Of a stretch of DNA of 64,000 nucleotides, positions 1-16,722 are shown in pieces. The first letter of the stretch is position 1. Each line of letters starts with the position of its first letter. A program made the translations under genes and the position numbers. Under the pieces are notes generated by a model. The model was given only the letters and a program-made list of their open reading frames with translations. It had not been told where the DNA came from and ran no database searches. This DNA is from an uncultured Rikenella sp. (GTDB lineage Bacteria > Bacteroidota > Bacteroidia > Bacteroidales > VadinHA17), in the NCBI GenBank assembly GCA_964537135.1, contig CAZHZC010000002.1:31700-95699 (forward strand), read 5' to 3'.

Positions 1-233
1 ATCTTGTCAGCCACCTCTCAAATGATAAGGGGGTGGTTGCCTTTGAGACTGAGCTCGATTCGCTGGGTGCGGAGGTGGGTATAGTACACTATGTAGATAC
101 TATCACCACCCCGGAACGGATATTTGCGGCACTCAATGCTGATACCCTGCTGATTCATTACTCTGACGGGCGTAGCACCAAAGTGGCCAGCCCGTTCAGG
201 TTTCCTGACCAGGGTGTGGTCAGAGAGCAGTAA
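1..233 (+). CDS. hypothetical protein, 3' end of a CDS entering from upstream of the window
   Basis: Frame is open from base 3 to TAA 231-233 (...GVVAFETELDSLGAEVGIVHYVD...GVVREQ*). No motif I recognise. Ends 26 nt before the ABC ATPase gene. Confidence 0.4.
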   Translation, partial: LVSHLSNDKGVVAFETELDSLGAEVGIVHYVDTITTPERIFAALNADTLLIHYSDGRSTKVASPFRFPDQGVVREQ

Positions 234-259
234 GGAGAAAAATAATTGACAACAACGGC

Positions 260-1144
260 ATGTATGCAATAGAGTGCAGAAACCTTACTCACTATTATGG
301 GAGGAAGCTGGTCTACGAGAACCTCTCATTCAATGTGGAGGAGGGGAAAATATTGGGCCTGCTGGGAAAAAACGGTACAGGCAAGTCTACAACCATAAAT
401 ATTCTGAACGGATTCCTGCAACCATACTCAGGTGAATGCCTTATATATGGAGAGAACAGCCAGCAGCTCTCCCCTGCCAACAAGCGTCGTATCGGCTTTC
501 TGATAGAGGGGCACGTGCAGTATTCATTCATGAATATACACCAGATAGAGAGGTTCTACTCAGGATTCTACCCTGACTGGAACAGTAAGCCCTACTGGGA
601 GCTGATGTCAAAGCTCAAGGTGACACCAAAGCAGAAGATATCAACCATGTCATGCGGACAACGGTCACAGGTGGCCTTGGGACTGATACTTGCCCAGGAT
701 CCTGACCTTCTGATACTTGACGACTTTTCAATGGGGCTTGACCCGGGCTATAGAAGACTGTTTATCGACTACCTGCGTGAATATGCCAAGGCGGAAAAAA
801 AGACGGTCTTTGTTACCTCACATATCATACAGGATATGGAACGTCTTATTGATGATGTGATGATCATGGACTATAATAGAATACTGGCACAGCAGTCTGT
901 TGAACAGTTTATGGGCAGCTTCAGGCAGTTTAACATTACCTTGGAAACGCCCGATGAGGAGATAAAGGGTGGTGAGATCGCTGTCAATATTGAGAAGATT
1001 AAAGAGAAGATAGAATTTTACACCTACTCATCCGAAGAGGAGGTGAAGCGGTTCCTGAAGGATGAGGGAGTCAGATATACCGCCGTGGAGGAGAAAAAGA
1101 TGTCACTTGAAGATGCCTTTATAGGGCTGACCCGCAAATATTAA
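260..1144 (+). CDS. ABC transporter ATP-binding protein
   Basis: Walker A GKNGTGKST, signature-like MSCGQRSQ, Walker B LLILDDFSMGLD, H-loop TSHI. About 80 aa C-terminal extension. Stop lies 1 nt before the next gene. Confidence 0.9.
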   Translation: MYAIECRNLTHYYGRKLVYENLSFNVEEGKILGLLGKNGTGKSTTINILNGFLQPYSGECLIYGENSQQLSPANKRRIGFLIEGHVQYSFMNIHQIERFYSGFYPDWNSKPYWELMSKLKVTPKQKISTMSCGQRSQVALGLILAQDPDLLILDDFSMGLDPGYRRLFIDYLREYAKAEKKTVFVTSHIIQDMERLIDDVMIMDYNRILAQQSVEQFMGSFRQFNITLETPDEEIKGGEIAVNIEKIKEKIEFYTYSSEEEVKRFLKDEGVRYTAVEEKKMSLEDAFIGLTRKY

Positions 1145-1145
1145 G

Positions 1146-1829
1146 ATGAAAAACGGTATCATGCTAAAGTCATTACTGTACAAAGAGTGGATAAAGATCA
1201 GGGTGGTGGCTGTGGCTGCCCTGGGAATCAGCATCGTTGCACTTGCAAACATTTTCCTGAAGGTAAGGCATGACATTCTCTTTACTGACGCTGCAAACTA
1301 TTGGTACTCATTCCTGTTCAGGGGAGCATCCTATTTTGATATTCTCAGGTACATGCCACTTCTTTTCGGGCTGGCAGTTGCTTTGGCACAATATGTTCCC
1401 GAAATTGTCAACAGGCGTATAAAACTTACCTTCCACCTGCCCATGTCGGAAAACGGGGTGCTGATACGTATGCACCTCTTTGGAACAGCGGTGCTGACAC
1501 TACTGCTGATATTAACGTTGGGTCTCTTCTCAGCCGGTAGCGCCATCTTCTTCCCCGCCAATATTGTCAAGGCATCGGTAGTGACAATGCTCCCCTGGTT
1601 TATGGGAGGGGTGGCAACCTATTTCCTTGTGGCACTGATACTGCTTGAGCCGGTATGGCTCTACCGCGGGCTATATACGCTGATAGCGGCAGGGTACATC
1701 ACATTCTACTACAAGGGCGCTGCCATAGAAGCATACCGGCCCATGCTGCTGCCACTGGCACTAATAACTATTCTCATTGGCAGTGTAGTACTGTTCTCAG
1801 GCTACAGATTCAGAAAAGGAGAGATGTAA
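1146..1829 (+). CDS. polytopic membrane protein, probable membrane partner of the ABC ATPase
   Basis: 227 aa with about 6 hydrophobic spans (VVAVAALGISIVALANIFL, LLFGLAVALAQYV, LFGTAVLTLLLILTLGLF, LPWFMGGVATYFLVALILL, LLPLALITILIGSVVLF). 1-nt gaps to both neighbours. Confidence 0.6.
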   Translation: MKNGIMLKSLLYKEWIKIRVVAVAALGISIVALANIFLKVRHDILFTDAANYWYSFLFRGASYFDILRYMPLLFGLAVALAQYVPEIVNRRIKLTFHLPMSENGVLIRMHLFGTAVLTLLLILTLGLFSAGSAIFFPANIVKASVVTMLPWFMGGVATYFLVALILLEPVWLYRGLYTLIAAGYITFYYKGAAIEAYRPMLLPLALITILIGSVVLFSGYRFRKGEM

Positions 1830-1830
1830 G

Positions 1831-3078
1831 ATGATCAGACTAAACAGATATATATTGGTGGCAGTGGGTATACTGGTACTCTCGGTAGTGCTACCATCAT
1901 TGTACTGGACCATCTTTGAAAAGGTGTCAAGGCTGCCAAACCTGTTCTACAGCTGTATTGAAGAGGATTTTATTATTGTGGAGGGCAGCCAGAGACGGTC
2001 ACCACAGGGAAAGGTTTACAGCTCTGATGAGTATGAAGAGGTGTTGCCGCTGATGTTTTTCAGGCAGCTGATTGCTGACGGCAAGATGCCCGATACCATC
2101 AAAGGGGTACAGGTGGAGATACCCTCTATCAACAGAGCCTCATCATTCTACAGATACACACCACGTAAGCTCAACAGCCCGGTACCTGAACTGTGGCCAA
2201 TGCTTGAGTCAGAGAGCGGAAAGGTCAGCCTGGTGATGCCTGATGACTACTTCCGTATCGGCAAGCGGATGGAATTCATTGTTGCAAAAACAAACAGGAT
2301 AGATGAGGAGAAGAGCCGGCGCTTCACCGAAGCCCTCACTGCCAACGGATTTCTGTTCCCCGCATCTGTCATTGCAGGACTGCCTACCACCAGGAAATCG
2401 GTAGATGACGGCTATTTTATTACTGACAGAAAGGGTGATCTCTTCCATGTAAAAATGGTACAGGGAGAACCATATGTGGCAGCTATCGAAACACCTGACA
2501 ACTTCGATATTGTCTATATCGAACCGGTAGATCTGAAAAGTCGTGAATACTATTGTTACATCCTGACAAGAAATAACGGTATCTTTGTTTTGATGGATGA
2601 GGTATATGACCTGCAGAGGCTGCCCATTGACGGCTTTGATCCATACCTGCATTCATTCCGTCTCAATGCAGACCTGTTTAACAAGAGTATAACAGTGACA
2701 GGTGAAAACTGGTTTGAGGCGGTAGCGATGGATGATATGTACCACGTTGTGGCAACATACGGCGAAAAGGGGGAAGGGCTGTATGAGAGGCGGGACGGGA
2801 AGATGTTCGCATCACTCTTTCCTTTTGAGATCAGGCTGAAAGAGGAGGAGTCACAATTCAGAAGACTATTCTTCAGACCATCACCCGGAATCAGGTGGTT
2901 ACCGGTTAACATGGTGGCCGTGGGACTCTCACTGGCGCTGCTGATGAGAAGAGGAAGAGCCGTCAGACAAAATATACCTGATCTGATAATCATTGCCGTG
3001 ACGGGCATTTACGGACTCATTGCCACCAGCTTCTTCCCCAATAAATTCAACAGTACGAAATCAGCTAACCAGAGATAG
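1831..3078 (+). CDS. membrane-anchored protein, DUF4857-like (N-terminal TM, large soluble middle, two C-terminal TMs)
   Basis: 415 aa. TMs ILVAVGILVLSVVLPSLYW (N-terminal), VNMVAVGLSLALLM and LIIIAVTGIYGLIATSFF (C-terminal). Size and context match my recollection of Pfam DUF4857, which I cannot verify here. Confidence 0.55.
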   Translation: MIRLNRYILVAVGILVLSVVLPSLYWTIFEKVSRLPNLFYSCIEEDFIIVEGSQRRSPQGKVYSSDEYEEVLPLMFFRQLIADGKMPDTIKGVQVEIPSINRASSFYRYTPRKLNSPVPELWPMLESESGKVSLVMPDDYFRIGKRMEFIVAKTNRIDEEKSRRFTEALTANGFLFPASVIAGLPTTRKSVDDGYFITDRKGDLFHVKMVQGEPYVAAIETPDNFDIVYIEPVDLKSREYYCYILTRNNGIFVLMDEVYDLQRLPIDGFDPYLHSFRLNADLFNKSITVTGENWFEAVAMDDMYHVVATYGEKGEGLYERRDGKMFASLFPFEIRLKEEESQFRRLFFRPSPGIRWLPVNMVAVGLSLALLMRRGRAVRQNIPDLIIIAVTGIYGLIATSFFPNKFNSTKSANQR

Positions 3079-3082
3079 TGAG

Positions 3083-5968
3083 GTGAAAAGAATCCTGTCA
3101 TCAATTCTTGTGCTAAGCCTGGCAATAACCCTTATGGCCCAGAATCGCTCATCAATGCGTGGCAGGGTGATATGCCGCTCCAGTGGTGAGCCGGTGATGA
3201 TGGCTACCGTGGTTGTCAAAGAGCTTAACCTGTGGGCTACAACAAATGATGCAGGTGACTTTCTGCTGAAGAATGTACCTGCCGGAACATATACAGTGGT
3301 GGTCTCATGCCTGGGATATATCGAGAATGAGAGTCGGTTTACATTTCCTGTGAAAGAGGAGACGGTGACACTGACAATTGATGAGGCTACACTGGCTATT
3401 GAGGGGGTGGTGGTTACAGCCAGGGAGGGACGGCGAATGGCATCAGGCTCAATGATTGAGCAGGCAGCCATACAGCATGTGCAGCCTACTGACCTGTCAG
3501 ATGTGATGCAGCTGCTGCCTGGGCAGACATCACTCAACCCTGACCTGTCACGACCCAAGCAGCTTACCATAAGAGAGATAATCGGGAAAGAGGGCTATAT
3601 GACAAACAATATGGCCAGCCTCGGTACTCTGCTGGTGATTGATGGCGCACCGGTCTCCAATGATGCCAACCTTCAGTTCCTGAAGACCACCAGTGCATCA
3701 CTGGGCGTTACCGCCGGGTTTGGCACCACAGCCTCAGGAGGCACCGATGTGAGGCAGATATCGGTAGACAACATAGAGACCATAGAGGTTGTCAGAGGTA
3801 TTGCCAGTGTAGAGAATGGTGATATGCTGAGCGGCGCTGTCAGGGTGACCATGAAAAAGGGCAAGGTGCCCCTGACTGCCAAGATCAAGACCGACCCGGG
3901 CATCAAACAGTTCTATGCCGGGAAAGGGGTATCACTGGGTGACAGGGCGGGAACGCTTAACCTTGACCTTGACTATACAAAATCATTTGATGACCTGAGG
4001 GTGAAGTACAAGACCTTCAACCGGATCAATGGAGGGGTGATATATAATAACAACCTTTTCCGTGAAACAAGGCCTCTGGCACTCACCCTCTCGGTGCGCG
4101 GATCACAGACCCTCGATATAAACGAGAAAGACCCTGACATGCTCGACGTTGAGAGCTATGAGGCGAGGGAGCAGAAACTCAGTATCAACCTCAACAACAA
4201 ATGGGCACTCAACTCACTCGTGCTGACCAACCTCAACCTTATGCTCTCCGCTGACATACAGAACCAGACGGGGCATGAGGTCAAACTGAAAGAGATACCA
4301 TCAGGTGCACAGCCGCAGCCTGTGGCACTGGAGCCGGGGGAGAATCCGGTACCCATGCTGCCATCATCATATATAAGTGATCTCAGGATAGAGGGAAAAC
4401 CCTACTACTACAATGCCAGGCTCTCAGCCAACAAGTCGCTCAATATAGGGTCACTGGTGAGCAACAGCGTGGCAGGGATAGAGTGGAGGCTCTACGGAAA
4501 CAACGGACAGGGAAGAATATTTGACCTGTCACGGCCGCCGGTACCCACTGAGGGGAACAATGCCAGACCTCGCTCATACAAGGATATACCCGCCCTGGGG
4601 CAGCTGGCATACTATGCCGAGGAGAACCTGGGGATACCTATCGGTAAGACCAGGCTTGACCTGCAGGCCGGGATACGGTTCACAAACGTTCAGCCTGACG
4701 GCATATTCAGCTCCAGAGAGGGCACAACAATGCTTGACCCCCGCTTCAATGCCAGGTATACCATTATTGACAAGAGGGAGGGGCTGCTGTCACACCTGAC
4801 CGTAAGGGGAGGGTACGGACTCTTCTCAAAGGCACCCGCACTGCTCTATCTATACCCTGACAAGGCCTACTGGGACAAGACCGGACTGAGCTATTATGAC
4901 CCTGTTGAACAGCGGGGGTTGTTTGTGGTTACTACAAAGATTTTTGATAACCCCCGCAATGAGAACCTGGTGGCAGCCACCAACCGGAAGCTGGAGGCAG
5001 GAGCGGACATAGGGCTGGGCAACGTAGATGTGAACCTGACCCTCTACCATGAGAAGATGACAAACGGGTTCGGGTTTGCCACCTATTATGAGAACTTCAT
5101 CTTCAACAGATATCTGGCTCCTACCCAGGGCGGTCTTGACCTCTATTATCTCTCCGGCTCAGGTGTCTATTACCGTGACCCGGTTACCGGTGATGAGGTA
5201 CAGCTGCCTGTAGCCAATGATACCGTATATGTCAGCTACACCTACCCCTCAAACAACAATATGAGCGTGAAGAGGGGAGCCGAGTTCACCCTTGACCTTG
5301 GCTCGGTGAATGCGTTGCGAACCTCATTTATCATTGATGGTGCATGGATGTATGTGAAACGGCAGCGGACCGAGAATGACCTTATGAGGCCTACCGGCAG
5401 CATAGGCGGAAAGGAGATGCCGGTGGTGGGTGTCTACCCTGCCGGAAACGGAACCATAGCCAGACGGTTCAATACAACCATCAGAACCATTACTCATATC
5501 AGGGAGCTGCGTATGGTTGCCTCGGTGACCACACAGATAATATGGGTTGACCGCAGTCAGAATATCTATGATGACCCTGATGGTAATCCGCTCTTCTATA
5601 CCACTACGCCGGTTAATGACCTCTATGCAGACAGGGAGAATCCGAAGTTCCTCGACCCGACAGGCTATTATGACCGGCAGATGGTCTATCACCCGTTTGA
5701 CCGCTCTATGGCGGTGACACGTCCCTACTCAGACCTGATTAAGCGTACAAACACTCCATGGTATTATGCTGATCTGAGCTTCCCTCCCTATTTTGTTATC
5801 AACTTCAAACTCACCAAGGAGATAACCAATTATGCAACATTCTCGTTTTACGCAAACAATATCACCAACTATAATCCTCTGCTAAAACAGCGCGGCGGGG
5901 CGCCGGAGAGCTATTTCCGGAGAAATCCGCCGCTCTACTTTGGTGCAGAGGTGAAAATCAAATTTTAA
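3083..5968 (+). CDS. TonB-dependent outer-membrane receptor (SusC-like N-terminus, no SusD partner)
   Basis: GTG 3083, right after the upstream stop, gives signal peptide VKRILSSILVLSLAITLMAQ. Carboxypeptidase-regulatory-like domain (GRVICRSSGEPV...NVPAGTYTVVVSCLGY), plug-like segment (GVVVTAREGRR...DLSDVMQLLPGQ...LLVIDGAP), and a long beta-rich barrel ending ...FGAEVKIKF. Confidence 0.88.
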   Translation: MKRILSSILVLSLAITLMAQNRSSMRGRVICRSSGEPVMMATVVVKELNLWATTNDAGDFLLKNVPAGTYTVVVSCLGYIENESRFTFPVKEETVTLTIDEATLAIEGVVVTAREGRRMASGSMIEQAAIQHVQPTDLSDVMQLLPGQTSLNPDLSRPKQLTIREIIGKEGYMTNNMASLGTLLVIDGAPVSNDANLQFLKTTSASLGVTAGFGTTASGGTDVRQISVDNIETIEVVRGIASVENGDMLSGAVRVTMKKGKVPLTAKIKTDPGIKQFYAGKGVSLGDRAGTLNLDLDYTKSFDDLRVKYKTFNRINGGVIYNNNLFRETRPLALTLSVRGSQTLDINEKDPDMLDVESYEAREQKLSINLNNKWALNSLVLTNLNLMLSADIQNQTGHEVKLKEIPSGAQPQPVALEPGENPVPMLPSSYISDLRIEGKPYYYNARLSANKSLNIGSLVSNSVAGIEWRLYGNNGQGRIFDLSRPPVPTEGNNARPRSYKDIPALGQLAYYAEENLGIPIGKTRLDLQAGIRFTNVQPDGIFSSREGTTMLDPRFNARYTIIDKREGLLSHLTVRGGYGLFSKAPALLYLYPDKAYWDKTGLSYYDPVEQRGLFVVTTKIFDNPRNENLVAATNRKLEAGADIGLGNVDVNLTLYHEKMTNGFGFATYYENFIFNRYLAPTQGGLDLYYLSGSGVYYRDPVTGDEVQLPVANDTVYVSYTYPSNNNMSVKRGAEFTLDLGSVNALRTSFIIDGAWMYVKRQRTENDLMRPTGSIGGKEMPVVGVYPAGNGTIARRFNTTIRTITHIRELRMVASVTTQIIWVDRSQNIYDDPDGNPLFYTTTPVNDLYADRENPKFLDPTGYYDRQMVYHPFDRSMAVTRPYSDLIKRTNTPWYYADLSFPPYFVINFKLTKEITNYATFSFYANNITNYNPLLKQRGGAPESYFRRNPPLYFGAEVKIKF

Positions 5969-5978
5969 CCAAATATAA

Positions 5979-7187
5979 ATGAGTATGAAGAGATTTCCTT
6001 TTTTATTAGCGTTGCTGGCCATCCTGGCGATAGGAATGACCTCCTGTAAAAAGGGTGCTGAGTTATATGATGTCACCATAACTGCGTACTACCCGGCAGG
6101 ATATGATTCTGAAAAGGCAGCCAGCCTGCCGGTAACCATCAGGCATAACATCTCTGGTACAGAGGTGACCGTCACTACTGATGCCACCGGCGTTGCTGTC
6201 GTAGCCCTCGAAGAGGGTGTATACAAAATTCAGGCTACCCAGGAGACCAGTGAGTTCTACTTCAACGGTATCACTGAGAATCTTGCTGTCAGCGCCACCG
6301 GGGCTAACAACTGGGAGATCCACCTGGAGGCTTCATCCAAAAAGGGCGGACTGGTCTTCAAGGAGATTTACTATACAGGCTCAAAGACCGAAGCGGGCGG
6401 AAGCTACTTCTCAGACCAGTTCCATGAGATATACAACAACAGTGATGAGGTGATCTACCTTGACGGCGTATGTCTCGGACTGCTCGAGCCCCAGGGATCA
6501 ACCCCTACCGTATGGGTGAATGAGGATGGATCGATCATGGACAGGCTGCCTCTCACCTTTCATGTGCTGATGTTCCCGGGTAACGGACAAACCTATCCGC
6601 TGGAGCCCAGAACCAGTGTTGTGGTGGCGCAGGACGCTATTGACCATCAGACTGACCCGCTGGGTAACCCCCTCTCACCGGTCAACATGGGAAAGGCCCC
6701 CTTCGAAACCTTTATTGAGGCTCCCGGCAAGGATACAGACAATCCTGAGTCGGCCAATATGATAGTGATGTACTCAACCTCAGCCACAATGGTTGACTGG
6801 CTCCATTCAGTCTCCGGTGCAGCCGTGGTGATGTTCAGGCTCCCCACCGGCCTCGACCATGAGTCGTTCGTCAATGACCCGTCCAACTTCATGCAGAAGC
6901 CCGGTACCACCTCTGCAACACTCTTCTTTATGATAGACAAAGAGTGGGTTATTGACGGGGTGGAGTGCAACAGGCCGGAAGAGGACAAGCGCTTTAAAAG
7001 GCTGCCTACCTCTGTGGATGCAGGGATGGTATGGTGCTCAGCCTCCTATAACTCAAAGAGTGTAAGGCGGAAGGTTGAGAAGATACTTGATGGTAAGGTC
7101 TACTACCAGGATACCAACAACTCCTCCAACGATTTTCTCGGAGAACAGGACCCGACCCCCTTTATCCATCCGACAACTGTAGACTGA
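5979..7187 (+). CDS. lipoprotein, DUF4876-like with lamin-tail-like segment
   Basis: Lipoprotein signal MSMKRFPFLLALLAILAIGMTSC. Ig-like N-domain (VTITAYYP...GVYKIQAT). LVFKEIYYTGS...FHEIYNNSDEVIYLDG resembles a lamin-tail-domain signature. Starts 10 nt after the receptor gene. Confidence 0.6.
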   Translation: MSMKRFPFLLALLAILAIGMTSCKKGAELYDVTITAYYPAGYDSEKAASLPVTIRHNISGTEVTVTTDATGVAVVALEEGVYKIQATQETSEFYFNGITENLAVSATGANNWEIHLEASSKKGGLVFKEIYYTGSKTEAGGSYFSDQFHEIYNNSDEVIYLDGVCLGLLEPQGSTPTVWVNEDGSIMDRLPLTFHVLMFPGNGQTYPLEPRTSVVVAQDAIDHQTDPLGNPLSPVNMGKAPFETFIEAPGKDTDNPESANMIVMYSTSATMVDWLHSVSGAAVVMFRLPTGLDHESFVNDPSNFMQKPGTTSATLFFMIDKEWVIDGVECNRPEEDKRFKRLPTSVDAGMVWCSASYNSKSVRRKVEKILDGKVYYQDTNNSSNDFLGEQDPTPFIHPTTVD

Positions 7188-7277
7188 GATAGTGATGAAT
7201 CAGGCAGATGAGTGTGCCGGACAGCGGCAGGGGCTGCACCGGCACACCATCTTCATAAAAGAGAACCCTCCGTGCAG

Positions 7278-8846
7278 ATGAAGAGAAGCTTCTTTGTTTA
7301 TGCCCTCACACTGCTGGTGGCTGCCGCTGCAACAGGGGGCGCTGCTGCCCAAGAGCCGGCAGTTGTCAGCAGCAATGCCTTTGAGGTGCTCAGGGTGCTA
7401 CACCCTCTGACCCTCACTGACAATGCGGCCTCACTGACACAATACCCGGTCAACAGGCTGAGTATGGTCAGTGCCGGGCTCTCCCTTGACAATGATGAGA
7501 TAACTTTGGTACAGCAGCCTGACAGGGTAACCTCATTCAATGCCCTTACCCGTGGCTTAATGAACTACAGGAGACTGACCATGACGGGCGAGTTTGAATA
7601 CTTAAACTCATATTATCAGGGGGTAAACTATAATGGTACGTTGATGTTCAACACATTGAACCCATACCTGCTTGGCGATACCGTACCTTCGGGCCAGTCA
7701 ATGGAGCAGTTCAGGATCAGGGGCGCCGCAGGATATATGGTCAGTGAGGCGCTGAGTGTAGGTGTGGGAGCCGACTATCTCACGGCGGTGGGAGCCAAGC
7801 AGAAGGACCCACGCAACAAAAATTCAATCACCGGGCTTAAGCTCTATCCGGGAGTGCTCTATTCAACGGGCAACACAATCTTAGGGGTGAACGGGGCTCT
7901 CTATAAGTCAAGCAATGAGGTCTCATACAAGGTTGAAGGCAACTGGAGCCAGTCACTCTTCGCATTCCTCGGGCTGGGCTACTACAGGCAGGAGATCAAC
8001 ATCACATCATACAGCATGCTCTATGATAGCCGGGGGTGGGGTGGCAGCCTGCAGGCAGCACACCACACTGACAAGATCATGATAATGGCATCGGCTGACT
8101 ACCGTCATCTGAAGGAGGAGGCTCTTCGGGGAAACAACTACCGGCTGATCAACGGGATAGCTGTGGTTGATGAGGTGACCCTCACCGGCCTGGTACGGCT
8201 GGCAGCAGAAAGAGGACACCACCTCTTCAGCCTCAAAGGCTCCCTTCAGGTGCTGAGCGGTGATGAGGTGCTGCAGAGATCATACACCGTCAACAAGGGT
8301 AACTACTCATATGACTCACTGGCTACGGTGAGCTGGATCAAGAACAAGCATATGGTCACCAATGCCGGTGGTGAGCTACGCTATACCCGGCTGGTAACCG
8401 ATGCCCAATACAATATCGATCTGGAGGCCGGCGCAGCACTCTATGCCGGCTATCTCTCGGCTGAACACTTCCCGGTGCAGAGCTACGGATACCATAACAC
8501 ACTGAACGGCGGTGTAAAAATATTCTTCAGAAAACTATTCAGAAGCGGCCGGCTGATGATCAGCCCGGGAGCGGAGGCGGGCTACCGGATGAACCTGGCA
8601 TCTGACATGGCCTATACCGAACAGAGTACCAGTGCTACCGCAATGGTCTATCATGATTACTATATACTGAAGGCAGATATGGTAAATGCGACAGCCACGG
8701 TGAGGATGGAGCTGCCGCTGAAGGGAAACAAATTTGTCAAATCATTGTTTTTTATTCCAAAAGGCCGGTGGGCTGCAGCCATAGGATCAGAGGCCGGAAA
8801 CCTCTCAGCTGTTATGGCTGATATTGCAGCCGGATTCATATTCTGA
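7278..8846 (+). CDS. outer-membrane beta-barrel protein (DUF6850-like)
   Basis: ATG 7278 gives signal peptide MKRSFFVYALTLLVAAAATGGAAAQ (ORF-track start 7212 is a GTG upstream of it). Alternating beta-strand pattern throughout. C-terminal ...IAAGFIF aromatic end is typical of OMPs. Confidence 0.6.
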   Translation: MKRSFFVYALTLLVAAAATGGAAAQEPAVVSSNAFEVLRVLHPLTLTDNAASLTQYPVNRLSMVSAGLSLDNDEITLVQQPDRVTSFNALTRGLMNYRRLTMTGEFEYLNSYYQGVNYNGTLMFNTLNPYLLGDTVPSGQSMEQFRIRGAAGYMVSEALSVGVGADYLTAVGAKQKDPRNKNSITGLKLYPGVLYSTGNTILGVNGALYKSSNEVSYKVEGNWSQSLFAFLGLGYYRQEINITSYSMLYDSRGWGGSLQAAHHTDKIMIMASADYRHLKEEALRGNNYRLINGIAVVDEVTLTGLVRLAAERGHHLFSLKGSLQVLSGDEVLQRSYTVNKGNYSYDSLATVSWIKNKHMVTNAGGELRYTRLVTDAQYNIDLEAGAALYAGYLSAEHFPVQSYGYHNTLNGGVKIFFRKLFRSGRLMISPGAEAGYRMNLASDMAYTEQSTSATAMVYHDYYILKADMVNATATVRMELPLKGNKFVKSLFFIPKGRWAAAIGSEAGNLSAVMADIAAGFIF

Positions 8847-8850
8847 TATT

Positions 8851-11001
8851 ATGAAAAGAGAGATTCTGACCGTAGTGGCTATGGTGCTGCTGGTATTTCC
8901 ATTGTCGGCACAGGGCCGCCAGGGCAGTTATGCAATCGTAGCTGACAGCCGGTCGCTGGCAGTGGCAGGTGATGAGATCAGGGAGTATGCAGCAGCCCTC
9001 AGATATGACGGGCTTGAGACTGTGATCATTGAAGACAGGTGGAAGCATCCTGACTCAATCAGACAGCAGCTACGCTCACTATACAAAGCAGACAGGAAGT
9101 TTGAAGGAGCAGTCTTTATAGGCGACATACCTGTGCCTATGATACGTGATGCACAGCACATGACCTCGGCATTCAAGATGGATCAGGTGAGGTACTCATG
9201 GGATCGCTCATCGGTACCCTCAGACCGTTTCTATGAGGACTTTGACCTTGAGTTTACGCTACTGAGGCCAGACACCAATGGCCTCTATTTCTATTACAGC
9301 CTCAACCACTCATCACCACAGAGGCTGACACCGGATATATACAGCGGCCGCATACGCATACCGGGAGACAGTGACGGCTCACAGCTGCGTGCCTATCTTA
9401 AGAAGGCGGCGGCAGCGCACCGTGACCCCGGTACTGTTGATGAGCTGCTGCTCTTCGCCGGGCATGGCTACAATTCCGAGTCGATGACCGCCAGGCTCGA
9501 TGAGAAGGCTGCACTGCTACAGCAGTTCCCGCAGCTCAACAGGCAGAGGAATGGACTGGAGTATATCGACTTCACTTTTGATGCCCATGTCAAGAACCGC
9601 ATACTGTCGGTCATGGCAGAAAAGATGATCGACATTGCCCTCCTGCACCATCACGGAACCTACGATGCACAGCTCGCCAGCGCTGAGCTGGCAGCCAAGG
9701 GCGTCAATCAGAATATTACAAACATACAGAACTACCTGAGGTCTAAGGTGAGGGGAGCCAAGGATACCACGGCAGCCAAGCAGAGGTATATCGACTGGCT
9801 GGGGGTGCCCGATGCATGGTTCCGGGGTGCCAATGACCCTGAGCAAATGCTTATAGATTCAATATGGTCAGCCGGCACAGAGATAGTTGCCGGTGACGTT
9901 GAAAAGTATGATATCAAGGCCAGGTTCATCATGTTTGATGCCTGCTTCAACGGCTCATTTCACCGCGACGGATATATCTCTGCAGCCTACCTGTATGGCA
10001 AGGGGCGTACGGTGGCCGCACAGGCCAATACGGTCAACTCTCTTCAGGACAAGTATCCTGATGAGATGATTGGTCTCCTCTCATACGGGATGAGGGTAGG
10101 TGAGTGGAACAGGCTGGTAGCCTCTCTTGAGACACATATCATAGGTGACCCTGCCTTCCGGTTCCGCCCCTCAGACCAGGGGATGGATGCAGTGACAATG
10201 CAGAAGTATGCCGGCAACAACAGCAGGCTGCTCAGGCTGACACGCTACCCACACCCTGATGTGCAGGCCTGGGCCCTGAGGCAGCTGTTTGAGAATGGCT
10301 ATGATAAGATAGGAGCTCTGCTGGAAGAGACCTATTTCAGCTCACCCTATGCAACCACTCGGGTTACCGCCATGCACCTGCTCTCAGAGGTCGGTGGCGA
10401 CCCGTTTGTAAGGGTGACAGCCGCTGCACTGGACGACTCCTACGAGCTGGCACGCCGGTTTGCAGCAATCTTCTGCCAGCAGTCGGGTGACCCGCGACTG
10501 GCACCGGCACTGATCAGGGCAGTCACCGACGCAAATATATCCAGGAGGGTTAACTATCAGGCCGTTGAGGCGCTGGCCTACTTTGACCGGGAGACTCTGG
10601 AGAGAGAGTTTGCCAGAAGGTTTGAAGGGGTTGATACCGCTAACTATATGGGGGCGATCTACCGGAAAAGAGCGGCAGAGATAGAGAGCCGTACAGATGC
10701 CTGTGCCCGTACGATAAACTCAGTTACCGGTGATGAGGTGACTGACAGGAACCGCATGTTTGACATACGCTCACTGCGCAACCTCACATACCACCCCGCG
10801 GTGGAGCCTCTCCGTGATTATCTCCTCACTGCCCCGGGTGATGATATCGAGATAGCTCTCCTTGAGGCACTGGGATGGTTCAGGCACAGCTACAGGAAAG
10901 ATCTTATTGAGGCTGCCTGCCGTGAGATTATCGCCGGGGAGGATAGGTTCTCCGCTGCAGTACGTGATGAGGCGCTGCGTACGATCAACCGTTTGAAGTA
11001 G
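8851..11001 (+). CDS. secreted protein: gingipain (peptidase C25)-like N-terminal region plus C-terminal HEAT-like repeats
   Basis: ATG 8851 gives signal peptide MKREILTVVAMVLLVFPLSAQG. Blocks YAIVAD...GAVFIGDIPVP...PDIYSGRIRIP...LLLFAGHGY...FIMFDACFNGSF follow the block order of C25-type proteins. The C-terminal ~250 aa has repeated helical units (PDVQAWALRQL, RRFAAIFCQQSGDPRLAPALIRAV, VNYQAVEALAYF, EIALLEALGWF). Confidence 0.45.
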   Translation: MKREILTVVAMVLLVFPLSAQGRQGSYAIVADSRSLAVAGDEIREYAAALRYDGLETVIIEDRWKHPDSIRQQLRSLYKADRKFEGAVFIGDIPVPMIRDAQHMTSAFKMDQVRYSWDRSSVPSDRFYEDFDLEFTLLRPDTNGLYFYYSLNHSSPQRLTPDIYSGRIRIPGDSDGSQLRAYLKKAAAAHRDPGTVDELLLFAGHGYNSESMTARLDEKAALLQQFPQLNRQRNGLEYIDFTFDAHVKNRILSVMAEKMIDIALLHHHGTYDAQLASAELAAKGVNQNITNIQNYLRSKVRGAKDTTAAKQRYIDWLGVPDAWFRGANDPEQMLIDSIWSAGTEIVAGDVEKYDIKARFIMFDACFNGSFHRDGYISAAYLYGKGRTVAAQANTVNSLQDKYPDEMIGLLSYGMRVGEWNRLVASLETHIIGDPAFRFRPSDQGMDAVTMQKYAGNNSRLLRLTRYPHPDVQAWALRQLFENGYDKIGALLEETYFSSPYATTRVTAMHLLSEVGGDPFVRVTAAALDDSYELARRFAAIFCQQSGDPRLAPALIRAVTDANISRRVNYQAVEALAYFDRETLEREFARRFEGVDTANYMGAIYRKRAAEIESRTDACARTINSVTGDEVTDRNRMFDIRSLRNLTYHPAVEPLRDYLLTAPGDDIEIALLEALGWFRHSYRKDLIEAACREIIAGEDRFSAAVRDEALRTINRLK

Positions 11002-11087: not shown

Positions 11088-13244
11088 CTACTCCTCTTCC
11101 TCTTCAGCGTCATAGGCCTTGATGACACTCTCCTGCACCTCGGCCGGTACCTGTACATACTCGGCAAATTTCATGGTGTACATGGCGCGGCCGCCTGTCA
11201 GTGAGCTGAGGGCGGTTGAGTACTTGTTCATCTCGGCCAGCGGCACCCTCGCCTTTATAACCTCAAGACCCTTGTCGCTTGACATGCCAAGTACCATGCC
11301 ACGTCGGCCCTGCAGGTCACTGATCACATCACCCATACGGTCGGCAGGAACCATGATCTCAACCTCATAGACCGGCTCAAGGATCTTGGGACCGGCATTT
11401 TTGAAGGCGTTGTTGAAGGCGTTGCGGCCGGCAAGACGGAACGATATCTCGTTTGAGTCGACCGGATGCATCTTGCCGTCATAGACATATACACGTATGT
11501 CACGTGCATAGGAGCCGGTAAGCGGACCCACCTCCATCTTCTCCATAATACCTTTGAGGATGGCAGGCATAAAGCGCCCGTCGATGGAGCCACCGACGAT
11601 ACAGTTGACATAGATCAGCTTGCCACCCCACTGCAGGTCGATCTCCTCCCTGTCACGCACGCTCAGCTTTATCTCCTTGCCGGCGATCTTTATCATGTTC
11701 TTTTCGCTGCTACCCTCTTCCCATGGCTCAATGATCATGTGCACCTCACCAAACTGTCCGGCGCCGCCTGACTGTTTCTTGTGACGGTAGTCTGCCTGTG
11801 AGGCCTTGGTGATGGTCTCACGGTAAGGTATGCGCGGGGTAATGAACTGTGTCTCAATCTTGAATATATTGTCGAGGTGCCACTTAAGTATGTTGAGGTG
11901 ATACTCACCCTGGCCATGCACTATTATCTGCTTAAGCTCCTTGGAGTACTCAATGATGATGGTGGGGTCTTCACCGTGCATCCGGCCCAGTGCCTCACCC
12001 AGCTTCTCCTCATCACTCTCATTGACAGGCTTGATGGCTGTGCGGAACTTCGGCTCGGGAAACATCATGGCCCCAAAGGTCCAGTCATTGGCCGGGGCGT
12101 TGAGCGTATGTCCTGCCTTGGTATTTTTCAGCTTGACAAAACCACCGATGTCACCCGCCTGCATCTCAGAGACGCGGGTACGGTTGCGCCCACTGCAGGC
12201 AAAGATCTGTGACAGCCGCTCCTTGGTGCCATTGCTGGTGTTCACCGCCTCATAGTTCTCAGTGATCTTGCCTGACATGACCCTGAAGTAGTTGATCTCA
12301 CCGATATGCTCCTCGATGGTGGTCTTGAAGACAAAGGCTGAAGGCTGGCCGGCAGTGCTGTAGGACACCTTCTCACCCTTTGAGTTGACCACTGCAGGCA
12401 TATCTGCCGGTGAGGGGGCTGAGGCAACCACAAACTCAAGGAGGCGGTCAACACCTGTATTGTTCTTTGCCGAGAGGCAGAAAACAGGGAAAATACCACG
12501 GTGGAGCAGACCGGCACGCAGGCCGCGGCTTATCTCCTCCTCGGTGAGGGTGTCATTGGCAAAGAAGAGCTCCATCAGCTCCTCATCACTCTCAGCCACC
12601 TTCTCTATGAGGGCTGCGTGCAGCTCGTCAGCCCTCTCACGGTGCTCAGCAGGTATCTCCTCGACAACAGCCTTGCCACCATCCTTGCCATAACGAAGCA
12701 TCTTCATGCTGATGATATCAATGATGGTACTGAAAGTGACACCCTCATCAACAGGAAACTGTGCCAGGGCAACGTTACTGCCAAACCGCTCTACAAGCAT
12801 CTCCACCGACTTCTCAAAGTTGGCCTTCTCATGGTCAAGCCCGTTAACAGCCAGTATGAGGGGCTTGTTGAACCTGTCGGCATGCCGGAAATGGATCTCG
12901 GTACCCACCTCAACCCCGTTCTGCACATTGATAAGCAGCATGGCGGTGTCAGCAGCATACATGGATGAGACCACCCCGCCAGAGAAGTCGTCAAGACCGG
13001 GTGCATCAATAATATTTATCTTTTTGTTGCCGAACTCGGTATAGAGTACTGTCGAGAAGATCGAGTTGCGATTCTCATGCTCAATGGGCTTGTAGTCAGA
13101 GACGGTGTTCCTGCCTTCCACTGTTCCGCGCCTCTCAATATTTCCACCGTTGAAGAGCATCGCCTCTGCAAGGGTTGTTTTTCCTGAACCGGTGTTACCC
13201 AGAAGTACAATGTTTCTCAGGTGGTCTGTGGAGTATGTTTTCAT
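11088..13244 (-). CDS. elongation factor G paralogue (EF-G2-like) with degenerate GTPase motifs
   Basis: 718 aa with five-domain EF-G architecture. P-loop GNTGSGKTT is kept, but G3 reads DAPGLDDF (His->Leu), G4 reads NGLD (not NKxD), and switch I reads NRNSI (not RGITI). Confidence 0.85.
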   Translation of the reverse strand: MKTYSTDHLRNIVLLGNTGSGKTTLAEAMLFNGGNIERRGTVEGRNTVSDYKPIEHENRNSIFSTVLYTEFGNKKINIIDAPGLDDFSGGVVSSMYAADTAMLLINVQNGVEVGTEIHFRHADRFNKPLILAVNGLDHEKANFEKSVEMLVERFGSNVALAQFPVDEGVTFSTIIDIISMKMLRYGKDGGKAVVEEIPAEHRERADELHAALIEKVAESDEELMELFFANDTLTEEEISRGLRAGLLHRGIFPVFCLSAKNNTGVDRLLEFVVASAPSPADMPAVVNSKGEKVSYSTAGQPSAFVFKTTIEEHIGEINYFRVMSGKITENYEAVNTSNGTKERLSQIFACSGRNRTRVSEMQAGDIGGFVKLKNTKAGHTLNAPANDWTFGAMMFPEPKFRTAIKPVNESDEEKLGEALGRMHGEDPTIIIEYSKELKQIIVHGQGEYHLNILKWHLDNIFKIETQFITPRIPYRETITKASQADYRHKKQSGGAGQFGEVHMIIEPWEEGSSEKNMIKIAGKEIKLSVRDREEIDLQWGGKLIYVNCIVGGSIDGRFMPAILKGIMEKMEVGPLTGSYARDIRVYVYDGKMHPVDSNEISFRLAGRNAFNNAFKNAGPKILEPVYEVEIMVPADRMGDVISDLQGRRGMVLGMSSDKGLEVIKARVPLAEMNKYSTALSSLTGGRAMYTMKFAEYVQVPAEVQESVIKAYDAEEEEE

Positions 13245-13712: not shown

Positions 13713-14087
13713 ATGCCGACAATTCAGCAGTTAGTAAGAAAAGGCCGCAAGAAGCTGGCAGAGAAGAGCAAGGCACCTGCTCTCGACTCATGCCCGCAGC
13801 GCAGGGGTGTATGTGTTCGCGTATATACCACCACGCCAAAGAAACCTAACTCAGCCATGAGAAAAGTAGCCAGGGTGAGGCTGACCAACCAGAAGGAGGT
13901 CAACGCATATATCCCGGGTGAGGGCCACAACCTGCAGGAGCACTCCATAGTGCTTATCAGGGGAGGCAGGGTAAAAGACCTGCCGGGGGTACGCTATCAC
14001 CTGGTACGTGGCGCCCTCGATACATCAGGTGTGGATGGCCGTAAGCAGAGAAGGTCTAAGTACGGAGCCAAAAGACCAAAGAAGTAA
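13713..14087 (+). CDS. rpsL: 30S ribosomal protein S12
   Basis: 124 aa [12 protein letters not shown]...TTPKKPNSA...[19 protein letters not shown] at 13704-13708, 4 nt before the ATG. Confidence 0.98.
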
Positions 14088-14583: not shown

Positions 14584-14616
14584 CAGGCTGCAACATAGGT
14601 TGAAGAGCAAAAAGTG

Positions 14617-16722
14617 ATGAACAACGATCTCAGATATACCAGAAACATTGGCATTATGGCCCATATTGATGCCGGAAAGACTACCACTTCCGAACGCATC
14701 CTCTATTTTACGGGCCGGGTGCACCGCATCGGTGAAGTCGATGACGGCAATGCCACTATGGACTGGATGGTGCAGGAGCAGGAGAGAGGGATCACCATCA
14801 CCTCAGCAGCAACCACCACCTTCTGGAAATATCGGGAGCAGCTCTACAAGATAAACCTGATAGATACACCCGGCCACGTTGACTTCACTGTAGAGGTTGA
14901 GAGGTCACTGAGGGTGCTCGATGGTGCCGTGGCAGTGTTCTGTGCGGTGGGTGGTGTAGAGCCGCAGAGCGAGACCGTATGGAGGCAGGCAAACAAATAC
15001 CATGTACCGCGTATAGCCTTCGTCAACAAGATGGACCGCACCGGGGCTGACTTCCTGGGTGTGGTGCAGCAGATAAGGGATAAGCTGGGAGCCAACCCGG
15101 TGCCGGTACAGATACCCATCGGTGCTGAAGATGAGTTCAACGGAATTATTGACCTGGTCGAGATGAAGGCTATCATCTTCAGGGAGAGCGGTGACCCGCT
15201 GATGAACTTCACGGTGGAGCCGATACCTGAATTTATGGTTGATGAGGCTGAAGAGTGGAGGATGAAGCTGGTGGAGGCGTGCGCCGGAATGGACGATACA
15301 ATACTTGAGCGCTACCTCGAGGACCAGGAGAGTATCACACCCGAAGAGCTGACAGCAGTGCTGCGTCGTGAAACGATAGAGGGTGTGGTGGTACCGGTCT
15401 TCTGCGGAGCATCATTCAGGAACAAAGGGGTACAGCGACTGATAAACGGGGTGACGGCATACCTGCCATCACCACTCGATGTGGGAGCAGTGAAAGGGCG
15501 TGACCCGCGTGATGACAAGGAGATAATACTCATGCCCGATACTGCCGAACCGCTGGCAGCACTGGCCTTCAAGATAGCTACTGACCCGCATATGGGCAGA
15601 CTGGTATTCCTGAGAGTATACTCAGGCAAGCTGAAGGCGGGTGATACCATATTAAATACTAGATCTGGAAAGAGGGAGAGGATCAACCGCCTCTTCCAGA
15701 TGCATGCAAACAAACAGAACCCCGTAGATACCGTCTATGCCGGCGATATATGCGCCGGGGTGGGGTTCAAGGATCTCAAGACAGGAGACACACTGTGTGC
15801 CGTAAACAAACCTGTTATGCTTGAGTCAATGGAGTTCCCCGATCCGGTGATCTGGATAGCTATCGAACCCAGGACCCAGGCTGACATAGAGCGGCTGTCA
15901 CTGGCGCTGGCCAAGCTGGCTGAGGAGGACCCCACCTTCCAGGTGAAGTCTGACCCTGACAGCGGACAGACCGTCATCAGTGGCATGGGTGAGCTCCATC
16001 TCGAGATACTGGTTGACCGTCTTAAGAGAGAGTTCAAGGTTGAGTGCAACCAGGGAAGACCACAGGTGGCATACAAAGAGGCTGTCACAGCAGCATACAC
16101 ACACAGGGAGCTGTTCAGCAAACAGACCGGAGGAAGAGGCAAGTTCGCAGATATTACCGTTGAGCTGATGCCCGCCGAGGAGGGCGTTGCCGGACTAACC
16201 GTGGTGAATGAGATACGTGGCGGGAACGTGCCGAAGGAGTTTATACCCTCAATAGAAAAAGGGTTCCGTGAGGCGATGAAGAACGGCCCGCTGGCCGGAT
16301 TCCCGCTTGACAGCCTCAAGGTGATCATCAAAGACGGTTCATACCACTCTGTCGACTCCGACTCATTGTCGTTCGAGATAGCAGCCAGGCAGGCGTTCCG
16401 CCATGCGGCACCAAAGTGCCGGCCGGTACTGCTCGAACCGGTGATGAAGGCTGAAGTGATCACCCCTGAAGAGTATGTGGGTGACGTGGTGGCCGACTTC
16501 AACAAGAGAAGGGGTAAGGTGGAAGGTATGGAATCGAAAGCAGGTGCAAGGGTGATAAAGGCAAAAGTACCTCTGGCAGAAAACTTCGGATATGTTACAG
16601 TACTGCGTACCCTTACCTCCGGAAGAGCTACATCGGCAATGGAGTTCTCACACTATGAGGAGGTGCCTGAAGAACTTGCCAAAAAAATTATTGAAGTAAC
16701 AACAGGAAAAATCCTTTATTGA
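14617..16722 (+). CDS. fusA: elongation factor G (canonical)
   Basis: G1 AHIDAGKTT, switch I RGITI, G3 DTPGHVDF, G4 NKMD. ATG 14617 preferred; GTG 14614 is also possible. Confidence 0.97.

Follow-up and report, generated by a model that had tools for sequence, protein, structure and literature searches.

Several gene clusters of the Bacteroidota that pair a TonB-dependent transporter (TBDT) with a DUF4876 lipoprotein have been described as strongly regulated by iron and heme, and here we compare with them a locus at positions 260 to 11001 of a 64,000-nucleotide stretch of DNA from an uncultured Rikenella sp. (assembly GCA_964537135.1, contig CAZHZC010000002.1, positions 31,700 to 95,699), which is called the window below. 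Upon iron depletion, BT3625-33 of Bacteroides thetaiotaomicron is up 37- to 128-fold, BT1933-39 of the same species, with its HEAT, DUF4876 and TBDT genes, 3.5- to 7.4-fold, and PG1019-22 of Porphyromonas gingivalis 21- to 214-fold, and the outer-membrane locus is induced in each of the three species that were studied (PMC10434189). Relatives of the window genes are among those that starvation for iron or heme induces most strongly in B. thetaiotaomicron, P. gingivalis and Prevotella intermedia. Moreover, the P. gingivalis DUF4876 gene shows a log fold change of -5.4 with hemin availability (PMC10470040) and goes up in a hemH mutant deprived of heme, and PG1019/PG1020 were still termed an uncharacterized transport system in 2026 (PMC13096392). 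AlphaFold-Multimer models and conserved proximity led to the proposal that the DUF4876 proteins BT1938 and BT3632 are lids on non-SusC receptors, the receptor-DUF4876 adjacency of BT1939/BT1938 and BT3633/BT3632 being conserved in 59-81 genera (bioRxiv 10.1101/2023.03.17.533168), and surface shaving of a Bacteroides fragilis DUF4876 homolog is in the literature. In the literature we found no assignment of a substrate, no mention of a C25 domain and no mechanistic account of the module formed by an ABC ATPase and DUF4857. An earlier note, made from the letters of the window, had put the locus forward as an undescribed system; this stands for the architecture of the whole system and for its mechanism, while the lid proposal and the iron-starvation clusters were already published.

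Our results show that the locus is a real and strongly conserved gene cluster of the Bacteroidota. We tentatively read it, with a probability of roughly 0.45, as a locus for TonB-dependent acquisition, belonging to the iron/heme-limitation type known from this phylum and composed of two separable modules, for which the best guess of a substrate would be an iron-bearing peptide, protein or chelate. Its features are as follows, where L001 is a publicly available contig of this organism in which position 1 of the window is position 4018, so that 4 kb are added upstream.

3-233, + strand: tail (C-terminal 76 codons) of a polyferredoxin gene, the eighth gene, lying mostly outside the window; full gene at L001:2328-4250
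260-1144, + strand: ABC ATPase, 294 amino acids (aa); from the open reading frame (ORF) listing and Pfam
1146-1829, + strand: predicted divergent ABC-2-type permease, 227 aa, six transmembrane helices; from an AlphaFold2 (AF2) model and homologs
1831-3078, + strand: DUF4857 membrane protein, 415 aa; from Pfam
3083-5968, + strand: TonB-dependent receptor (TBDT), 961 aa, GTG start; from Pfam
5979-7187, + strand: DUF4876 lipoprotein, 402 aa, putative surface lid; from Pfam and the lipobox
7206-7252, + strand: intercistronic stem-loop inside a 90-nt spacer; from RNA folding
7278-8846, + strand: DUF6850 outer-membrane beta-barrel protein, 522 aa; from Pfam
8851-11001, + strand: exported protein with predicted C25 and HEAT parts (C25-HEAT), 716 aa; from a HEAT_2 match and homologs

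As shown in this list, 260-11001 holds seven complete co-directional genes and the eighth ends at 3-233, so that the earlier count of eight genes inside these bounds has to be corrected, while the tight co-directional cluster that it described is there: from the polyferredoxin tail onwards the gaps are 26, 1, 1, 4, 10, 90 and 4 nt. The gene boundaries agree across the ORF listing, the junction sequences and the independent gene calls on L001, and the genes probably form a single transcript. The three families DUF4857, DUF4876 and DUF6850, which the earlier note had named, are all found by Pfam.

The arrangement of these genes is conserved far beyond chance. Two samples of related loci were compared, one anchored on DUF4857 (80 genome loci fetched from other species, 43 with wide flanks) and one on the HEAT/C25 protein (80 metagenome loci fetched, 19 wide). 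Among the 43 wide loci of the former, the ABC ATPase, the permease and DUF4876 occur in all 43, the TBDT in 42, DUF6850 in 41, the polyferredoxin in 33, the HEAT gene in 20 and a 147-aa lipoprotein in 19, and the ATPase and the permease adjoin DUF4857 in every one of them; the tight coupling claimed for the locus is thus borne out by a co-occurrence of 42-43/43 across Bacteroidota families. Among the 19 wide HEAT-anchored loci, DUF4876 is present in 19, the TBDT and DUF6850 in 15 each and the ABC module in 1; the recurrent unit is TBDT-DUF4876-DUF6850-HEAT with one to three tandem HEAT genes, and the ABC module is missing from 18 of the 19 wide loci and, counted over all 80, from about 78, with only two loci having it. 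Conversely, the ABC module lacks an adjacent receptor set in at most 1 of 43 loci. Two modules can therefore be told apart, namely a core (TBDT, DUF4876, DUF6850 and one to three C25-HEAT genes) and an accessory module (ABC ATPase, permease, DUF4857 and often the polyferredoxin), and since the outer-membrane set is mostly found with no ABC module beside it, the former is an autonomous core and the latter a clade-restricted add-on. The cluster is spread over Rikenellaceae, Prolixibacteraceae, Marinilabiliaceae and a metagenome-assembled genome labelled Chitinophaga. In Rikenellaceae-like loci the order is polyferredoxin-ABC-permease-DUF4857-TBDT-DUF4876-DUF6850-HEAT, and Prolixibacteraceae, Draconibacterium and Maribellus have the receptor triad ahead of the ABC triad; because the adjacency of the modules survives this inversion of gene order, a functional coupling between them can be argued.

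In the core, the receptor matches CarbopepD_reg_2 (9.5e-17) and Plug (5.1e-9) in Pfam, and it consists of a signal peptide (MKRILSSILVLSLAITLMA|QN), a CarboxypepD_reg-like N-terminal domain, a plug and a divergent barrel with the C-terminus ...KIKF, its start being the same in the public gene call. The general marks of a TonB-dependent transporter (plug, C-terminal barrel and signal peptide) are all there; the barrel model TonB_dep_Rec_b-barrel is matched by the homolog in L165 and unmatched by the window receptor, and a sequence search of the PDB gave no relative of the receptor. The receptor had been called SusC-like at first, a label that does not hold, for against the SusC/RagA model TIGR04056 it scores 42.1 bits where the cut-off is 368.25, with model positions 4-183 alone matched, which by sequence places it outside that family. 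The description of the locus as SusD-less proved right, since none of the eight proteins has a SusD-like Pfam match, and the gene after the receptor is DUF4876. This protein carries the DUF4876 domain (Pfam 2.2e-44) and a lipobox Cys (...GMTSC), is separated from the receptor gene by 10 nt, adjoins it in 43/43 and 19/19 loci of the two samples, and is similar to the 'putative lipoprotein' 4q1z in the PDB (2e-45). At least two Asp/Glu residues stand just past the lipid Cys in 51 of 71 distinct homolog N-termini, and the window copy has a weak export signal (CKKGAELYD). Judged by these features and by analogy with the proposed lids, it is a putative surface lid of the receptor. As to the lamin-tail-like segment once seen in it, the LTD match is sub-threshold (E 0.0058, 17 bits vs 34) and this resemblance was rejected.

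The last gene of the core, 8851-11001, encodes a protein with a type-I signal peptide and a HEAT_2 match (Pfam, 1e-8), which appears to be laid out as a peptidase-C25 domain (gingipain family, clan CD) at about residues 30-440 followed by C-terminal HEAT repeats. It had been described as gingipain-like with HEAT repeats; the HEAT part is seen in the window copy itself, while the C25 part comes by way of its homologs and not by a direct match. In fact, Peptidase_C25 is matched by 19 of 46 members of the HEAT family at E <0.1 (best 8.5e-10), and P0176, P0178 and P0181, which are 45-50% identical, reach 32-39 bits against a gathering score of 23 over residues of about 41-441. Moreover, the two motifs of the C25 dyad, IALLHHHG (H268-G269) and FIMFDAC (D363-A364-C365), each follow a hydrophobic strand and are invariant in 46 homologs; H268-G269 and A364-C365 are kept in 33/33 sequences, tandem paralogs included, and D363 is replaced by N or E in three. 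By this domain and the retained His/Cys dyad the protein is predicted to be a C25-family cysteine peptidase. Pfam detected no C-terminal domain of the type IX secretion system (T9SS) in it. An M16 peptidase is found in 10 related loci, L115, L116, L118 and L120 included.

The family is also seen in multiple copies. In metagenome loci L114-L116, L118-L120, L127, L136 and L149-L155, several of them from human gut, the C25-HEAT gene is tandemly triplicated after DUF6850 with the His/Cys dyad kept in every copy, and in L114 DUF6850 is separated from the three copies by an M16 peptidase of 941 aa.

Between the lid and the peptidase lies the DUF6850 protein (Pfam 9.1e-64), which has a signal peptide and the C-terminus ...AAGFIF with its final Phe, and follows DUF4876 in 41/43 DUF4857-anchored and 15/19 HEAT-anchored loci. 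A sequence search of the PDB returned no relative of it. By analogy it might be, among other roles, a Slam-like lipoprotein exporter or a PorV-like peptidase anchor.

In the accessory module, the ATPase (ABC_tran, 1.3e-22) has PmtA, GldA, DrrA and NodI as its top NCBIfam models (E 1e-42 to 1e-32), all far under their equivalog cut-offs, and hence is of the DrrA/NodI/GldA/PmtA-like ABC-2 group, whose models are partners of ABC-2 permeases. Its gene lies directly 5' of the permease gene in 43/43 loci. The 227-aa product of the latter had been said to be unlike a standard ABC permease, and in fact the window copy has no match in Pfam or NCBIfam; its homologs, in turn, match ABC2_membrane_4 at 6e-5 to 2e-4 (21.8-23.5 bits vs a gathering score of 27). 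The AF2 model has six transmembrane helices at pLDDT 84 and pTM 0.83, and in the PDB a TM-score above 0.35 is limited to NosY chains and LptF (0.39), the former reaching 0.44-0.59 (up to TMq 0.59 / TMt 0.52) with Foldseek E-values above 0.5, which are not significant. Because of the sub-threshold matches of the homologs, the confident model and NosY as the sole good fold match, the protein is predicted to be a divergent, NosY-like ABC-2 permease after all. The family is tight, with 482 clusters in a scan of 1.84 billion representative proteins, nearly all of about 222 aa, and since the homologs mostly have 222 aa, translation may begin with the ATG at 1161 instead of at 1146.

The DUF4857 protein (Pfam 1.7e-81) matches no other Pfam family, and thus no GldG-type auxiliary; by hydropathy and the AF2 model (pLDDT 88, pTM 0.78) its beta-rich periplasmic domain of about 320 aa is preceded by one transmembrane helix at the N-terminus and followed by two at the C-terminus. 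The Foldseek matches are weak and propeller-like (TM 0.25-0.32), so that no fold family is claimed, and PDB sequence searches found relatives neither of this protein nor of the permease. Direct evidence that the two form one membrane unit comes from natural fusions in a single polypeptide, P0410 (663 aa) and P0486 (659 aa). Across the whole cluster, Pfam and NCBIfam tie no component to a transporter of known substrate, as the earlier note would have it.

It is here that another reading has to be considered, namely that all eight proteins make up an obligate trans-envelope machine, Lpt-, Lol- or GldAFG-like, in which the ABC part powers outward transport or surface assembly. The exporter or mechanotransducer ABC-2 type of the ATPase and permease and the GldG-like topology of DUF4857 would suit such a machine, as would the near-constant presence of a receptor set next to the ABC module (lacking in at most 1/43 loci), and BT3630 of a related cluster is a secreted or outer-membrane-vesicle lipoprotein used as a secretion carrier (PMC11554821). 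However, a plug and a TonB-dependent architecture point to inward transport, the cut-offs of GldA (TIGR03522, 129.3 bits vs 402.6), LptB and other equivalogs are all unmet, and in 18/19 wide loci the outer-membrane set has no ABC module next to it; because this set mostly occurs alone and the ABC module is an add-on, we consider the trans-envelope machine that the earlier note had suggested to be quite unlikely.

Upstream of the ATPase, the gene ending at 3-233 encodes a polyferredoxin of 640 aa, a membrane protein of the NapH/MauN/NosR type. Its Pfam matches are Fer4_5 (2e-11) and dicluster families, and in NCBIfam it scores 48.8 bits with NapH/MauN (cut-off 213) and 47.5 bits with NosR (cut-off 1000), both below threshold. 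It carries two CX3CP motifs in the transmembrane core (C84-X3-C88-P and C182-X3-C186-P) and two cytoplasmic CxxCxxCxxxC motifs for 4Fe-4S clusters (Cys 256/259/262/266 and 283/286/289/293), with an additional transmembrane helix at 306-331. The 309-aa C-terminal domain has no Pfam match, and its HMA-like look, a visual impression, was dropped without Pfam support. In front of the polyferredoxin, the 147-aa lipoprotein h147 (L001:1796-2239) has a lipobox (AGSC) and three more Cys, and belongs to no Pfam or NCBIfam family.

Taken with the ATPase, the permease, DUF4857 and the small lipoprotein, the polyferredoxin invites a comparison with NosR/F/Y/D/L, in which the module would load or repair the metal centre of a client in the periplasm or outer membrane, in this case the C25-HEAT protein or the cargo of the receptor. 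In structure NosY comes closest to the permease, NosR and NapH are matched about equally by the polyferredoxin core, and the Cys-containing h147 lies upstream in 19/43 loci. On the other side, DUF4857 has no NosD beta-helix and no conserved Cys/His/Met cluster, NosZ or any other metalloenzyme client is absent from the cluster, Pfam gives no FMN-binding match in the polyferredoxin, and all model scores are far under their cut-offs, so that cofactor maturation of the Nos kind is improbable.

The redox partner and the genes around it vary among species. PepSY-type membrane proteins stand in the place of the polyferredoxin in BT3628-29 and in Sunxiuqinia elliptica, whose locus (L164:12178-18518) surrounds the ABC module with an APC-family AA_permease, two lipoproteins of 288 and 175 aa and a PepSY_TM_like_2 protein; these extra genes are not conserved elsewhere, AA_permease being found in one other locus. 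In loci that are mostly of the Prolixibacteraceae type (L053:371-2704, L050:4431-8193 and 18 others), the gene for a BNR/Ycf48/sortilin-like beta-propeller of about 790 aa with a T9SS C-terminal sorting domain sits between the polyferredoxin and the receptor, and in L110 a flavodoxin with DUF2023 is directly 5' of the receptor.

As for the mechanism, the acquisition locus that we favour could work as follows. The non-SusC receptor and the DUF4876 surface lid of the core would capture and import the substrate, and the DUF6850 barrel and the exported C25-HEAT peptidase would act on the substrate or on the machinery itself. The C25 peptidase or peptidases, together with the M16 peptidase in some genomes, would most likely work in the periplasm and cut there whatever part of the cargo is peptide or protein. 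The ABC-2 complex of ATPase, NosY-like permease and DUF4857 would then couple ATP hydrolysis to the extraction or hand-over of the freed metal or cofactor, or to its passage through the inner membrane, and the NapH/NosR-type polyferredoxin, or a PepSY-type protein in other species, may provide electrons on the periplasmic side, for example for the reduction of Fe(III). A bolder version takes this for a protease-associated import of the Bacteroidota, in which a lidded TBDT admits iron or heme cargo, dedicated periplasmic clan-CD peptidases, whose HEAT repeats hold on to the cargo or cofactor, dismantle it, and the Nos-like ABC-2/DUF4857 complex with the polyferredoxin strips and reduces the metal; we hold this version as doubtful, and if it were true, such a combination of parts would be undescribed for any uptake system.

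Several observations weigh against the favoured reading. The putative iron link of the window locus comes from family-level homology to regulated loci, and the homologous pairs of B. thetaiotaomicron gave no fitness phenotype in 519 conditions (bioRxiv 10.1101/2023.03.17.533168). No Fur-type box was found, and an Rfam scan of seven loci returned no riboswitch and one tRNA only. As to the peptidase, the window copy has no Peptidase_C25 (PF01364) match at E <=0.1, the family profile finds artificial HEAT/alphaRep proteins only and no gingipains in the PDB, and the periplasmic location is putative, as is any role of DUF6850. In the accessory module, besides the non-significant Foldseek E-values with NosY, there is no invariant Cys or His among 46 DUF4857 sequences and no conserved Cys/His suggesting a metal site in the periplasm-facing parts of the permease, and ABC-2 systems are usually exporters or mechanotransducers rather than importers.

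Some of these absences would fit with a general nutrient uptake without a metal role, in which peptides, small proteins or another organic nutrient are imported and digested by the C25 peptidase, the ABC part carries the products inward, aided by the amino-acid permease of one species, and the induction by iron limitation is indirect. The lack of a conserved metal-binding motif in DUF4857 and of a Fur box or riboswitch, the one to three copies of the core peptidase gene, the M16 peptidase in 10 loci and the AA_permease inside the Sunxiuqinia cluster all speak for it. However, work on three species by two laboratories shows a strong and specific induction when iron or heme is limiting, the polyferredoxin or PepSY redox proteins recur without an obvious need in peptide uptake, and AA_permease has that single further occurrence; such a metal-free uptake is unlikely.

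The spacer 7188-7277, directly 3' of the DUF4876 gene, is the sole long gap of the cluster. The fold of 7180-7285 has -37 kcal/mol (z -3.8) and is equalled by 0 of 200 shuffles, and strong hairpins with unrelated stem sequences are found at the same position after the DUF4876 stop in 12 of the 13 related loci examined (L004, L007, L010, L012, L013, L019, L020, L024, L027, L029, L034 and L099). The hairpin 7206-7252 has no U-tract and so is not a canonical terminator; its recurrence at one position suggests a conserved intercistronic element through which the receptor and the lid would differ in expression or RNA stability from the genes that follow. Should this spacer divide transcription units, the locus could be two or three unrelated operons that merely lie side by side, in line with an RND pump and its PG0541-family partner upstream, apparently a separate unit. 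This is very hard to reconcile with modules that remain adjacent while their order inverts between families, with gaps maintained at 1-10 nt, with a co-occurrence of 42-43/43 and with the co-induction of the related BT3625-33 genes, and we regard it as highly improbable.

As to the surroundings, upstream of h147 there is the multidrug-type RND pump with the PG0541-family partner, a P-II-like gene, then a terminator-like hairpin. This pair was rejected as part of the system on account of that hairpin and of a synteny limited to Rikenellaceae-like and related Bacteroidales loci which share the gene order of the window. A scan for sigma-70 promoters and terminators is uninformative in a Bacteroidota genome; the Bacteroidetes -7 motif TAnnTTTG has its sole intergenic copy before the cluster at L001 1762-1769, 27 nt 5' of the h147 start, and its count is not above chance. 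In relatives (L004:4925-6459 and 28 other loci) the genes for the small lipoprotein and the polyferredoxin have between them one for an extracytoplasmic-function (ECF) sigma factor, after which come a membrane protein of 174 aa, weakly similar to Metal_resist/LTXXQ (E 0.018, 0.089), and a protein of 111 aa; the sigma gene is absent in the window organism (L001). Downstream, the locus is bounded by a convergent EF-G paralog and a ribosomal-protein cluster: EF-G-family GTPases lie on both sides of ribosomal protein S12 (13713-14087), at 11088-13244 on the - strand, a divergent paralog convergent with the locus, and at 14614-16722 on the + strand, and then come a ribosomal-protein/SecY/RpoA cluster, enolase and a UbiD-family gene. 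Besides, a bin labelled Candidatus Pacearchaeota archaeon contains a permease-DUF4857-TBDT fragment on a 2.5-kb contig (L032, PWGL01000007.1), which almost certainly belongs to the Bacteroidota and was misbinned.

Compared with the known systems, the window locus shares parts with several of them. In the gliding apparatus of Bacteroidota, GldA and GldF are an ABC-2 ATPase and permease, and the auxiliary GldG has N- and C-terminal transmembrane helices around a large periplasmic domain; the window DUF4857 has GldG-like anchors flanking its periplasmic domain, while its lack of a GldG-type match and the GldA score of the ATPase keep the module apart from this system. NosDFY(L) with NosR (PDB 7o0y, 7o0z, 7o17, 7znq, 7qba), which serves the maturation of nitrous-oxide reductase and is the nearest analogue of the inner-membrane module, likewise has an ABC-2 ATPase, a six-helix permease, a dedicated periplasmic partner and a CX3CP polyferredoxin alongside, but the window DUF4857 is membrane-anchored and propeller-like instead of a beta-helix and its module is joined to a TBDT; NosD, NosZ and NosL have no Pfam match, and the scores stay below the family thresholds.

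Closer to the core, BT1939/BT1938 and BT3633/BT3632 agree with the window genes in Pfam families and in their order, with a CarboxypepD_reg-like receptor ahead of a DUF4876 lipoprotein. BT1936-39 also carries a HEAT-repeat gene, unlike the window with no adjacent ABC module in the gene lists, and BT3625-33 has an ABC ATPase, a hypothetical membrane protein, DUF4857, DUF4876 and a TBDT (PMC10434189), whereas two PepSY-TM proteins, a fimbrillin-like lipoprotein and two DUF4876 proteins replace the polyferredoxin, DUF6850 and C25-HEAT of the window. These B. thetaiotaomicron clusters are related to the window locus at the family level only, and the published work on them is silent on DUF6850, on the peptidase nature of the HEAT protein and on the ABC module. 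PG1019-PG1022 of P. gingivalis has the DUF4876 lipoprotein, the TBDT, downstream hypothetical genes and the strong iron/heme regulation, but no adjacent ABC/DUF4857 module in the gene lists (PMC10434189).

In its logic, the locus may resemble most the protease-associated import of Proteobacteria, such as the ferredoxin uptake system Fus (FusA/B/C/D), where a TBDT, a periplasmic protease and an ABC transporter serve iron piracy from a protein (PMC6042079, PMC6071955, PMC6793856), and M16, the family of FusC, is present in the 10 loci related to that of the window. The window itself has neither an M16 protease nor a dedicated TonB homolog; its protease is predicted to be of the clan-CD C25 type with HEAT repeats and its receptor is of a different family with a putative lipoprotein lid, and any import of a protein would be putative. 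To sum up, our analysis offers features that can be tested, namely the Cys-peptidase dyad, the NosY-like permease tied to DUF4857, the interchangeable redox partners and the split into core and accessory modules. If the favoured reading is confirmed, it would extend the Nos-type mechanotransducing ABC complexes to nutrient uptake, and it would add a third iron-acquisition route of gut and oral Bacteroidota beside the uptake of heme (Hmu) and of xenosiderophores (Xus).

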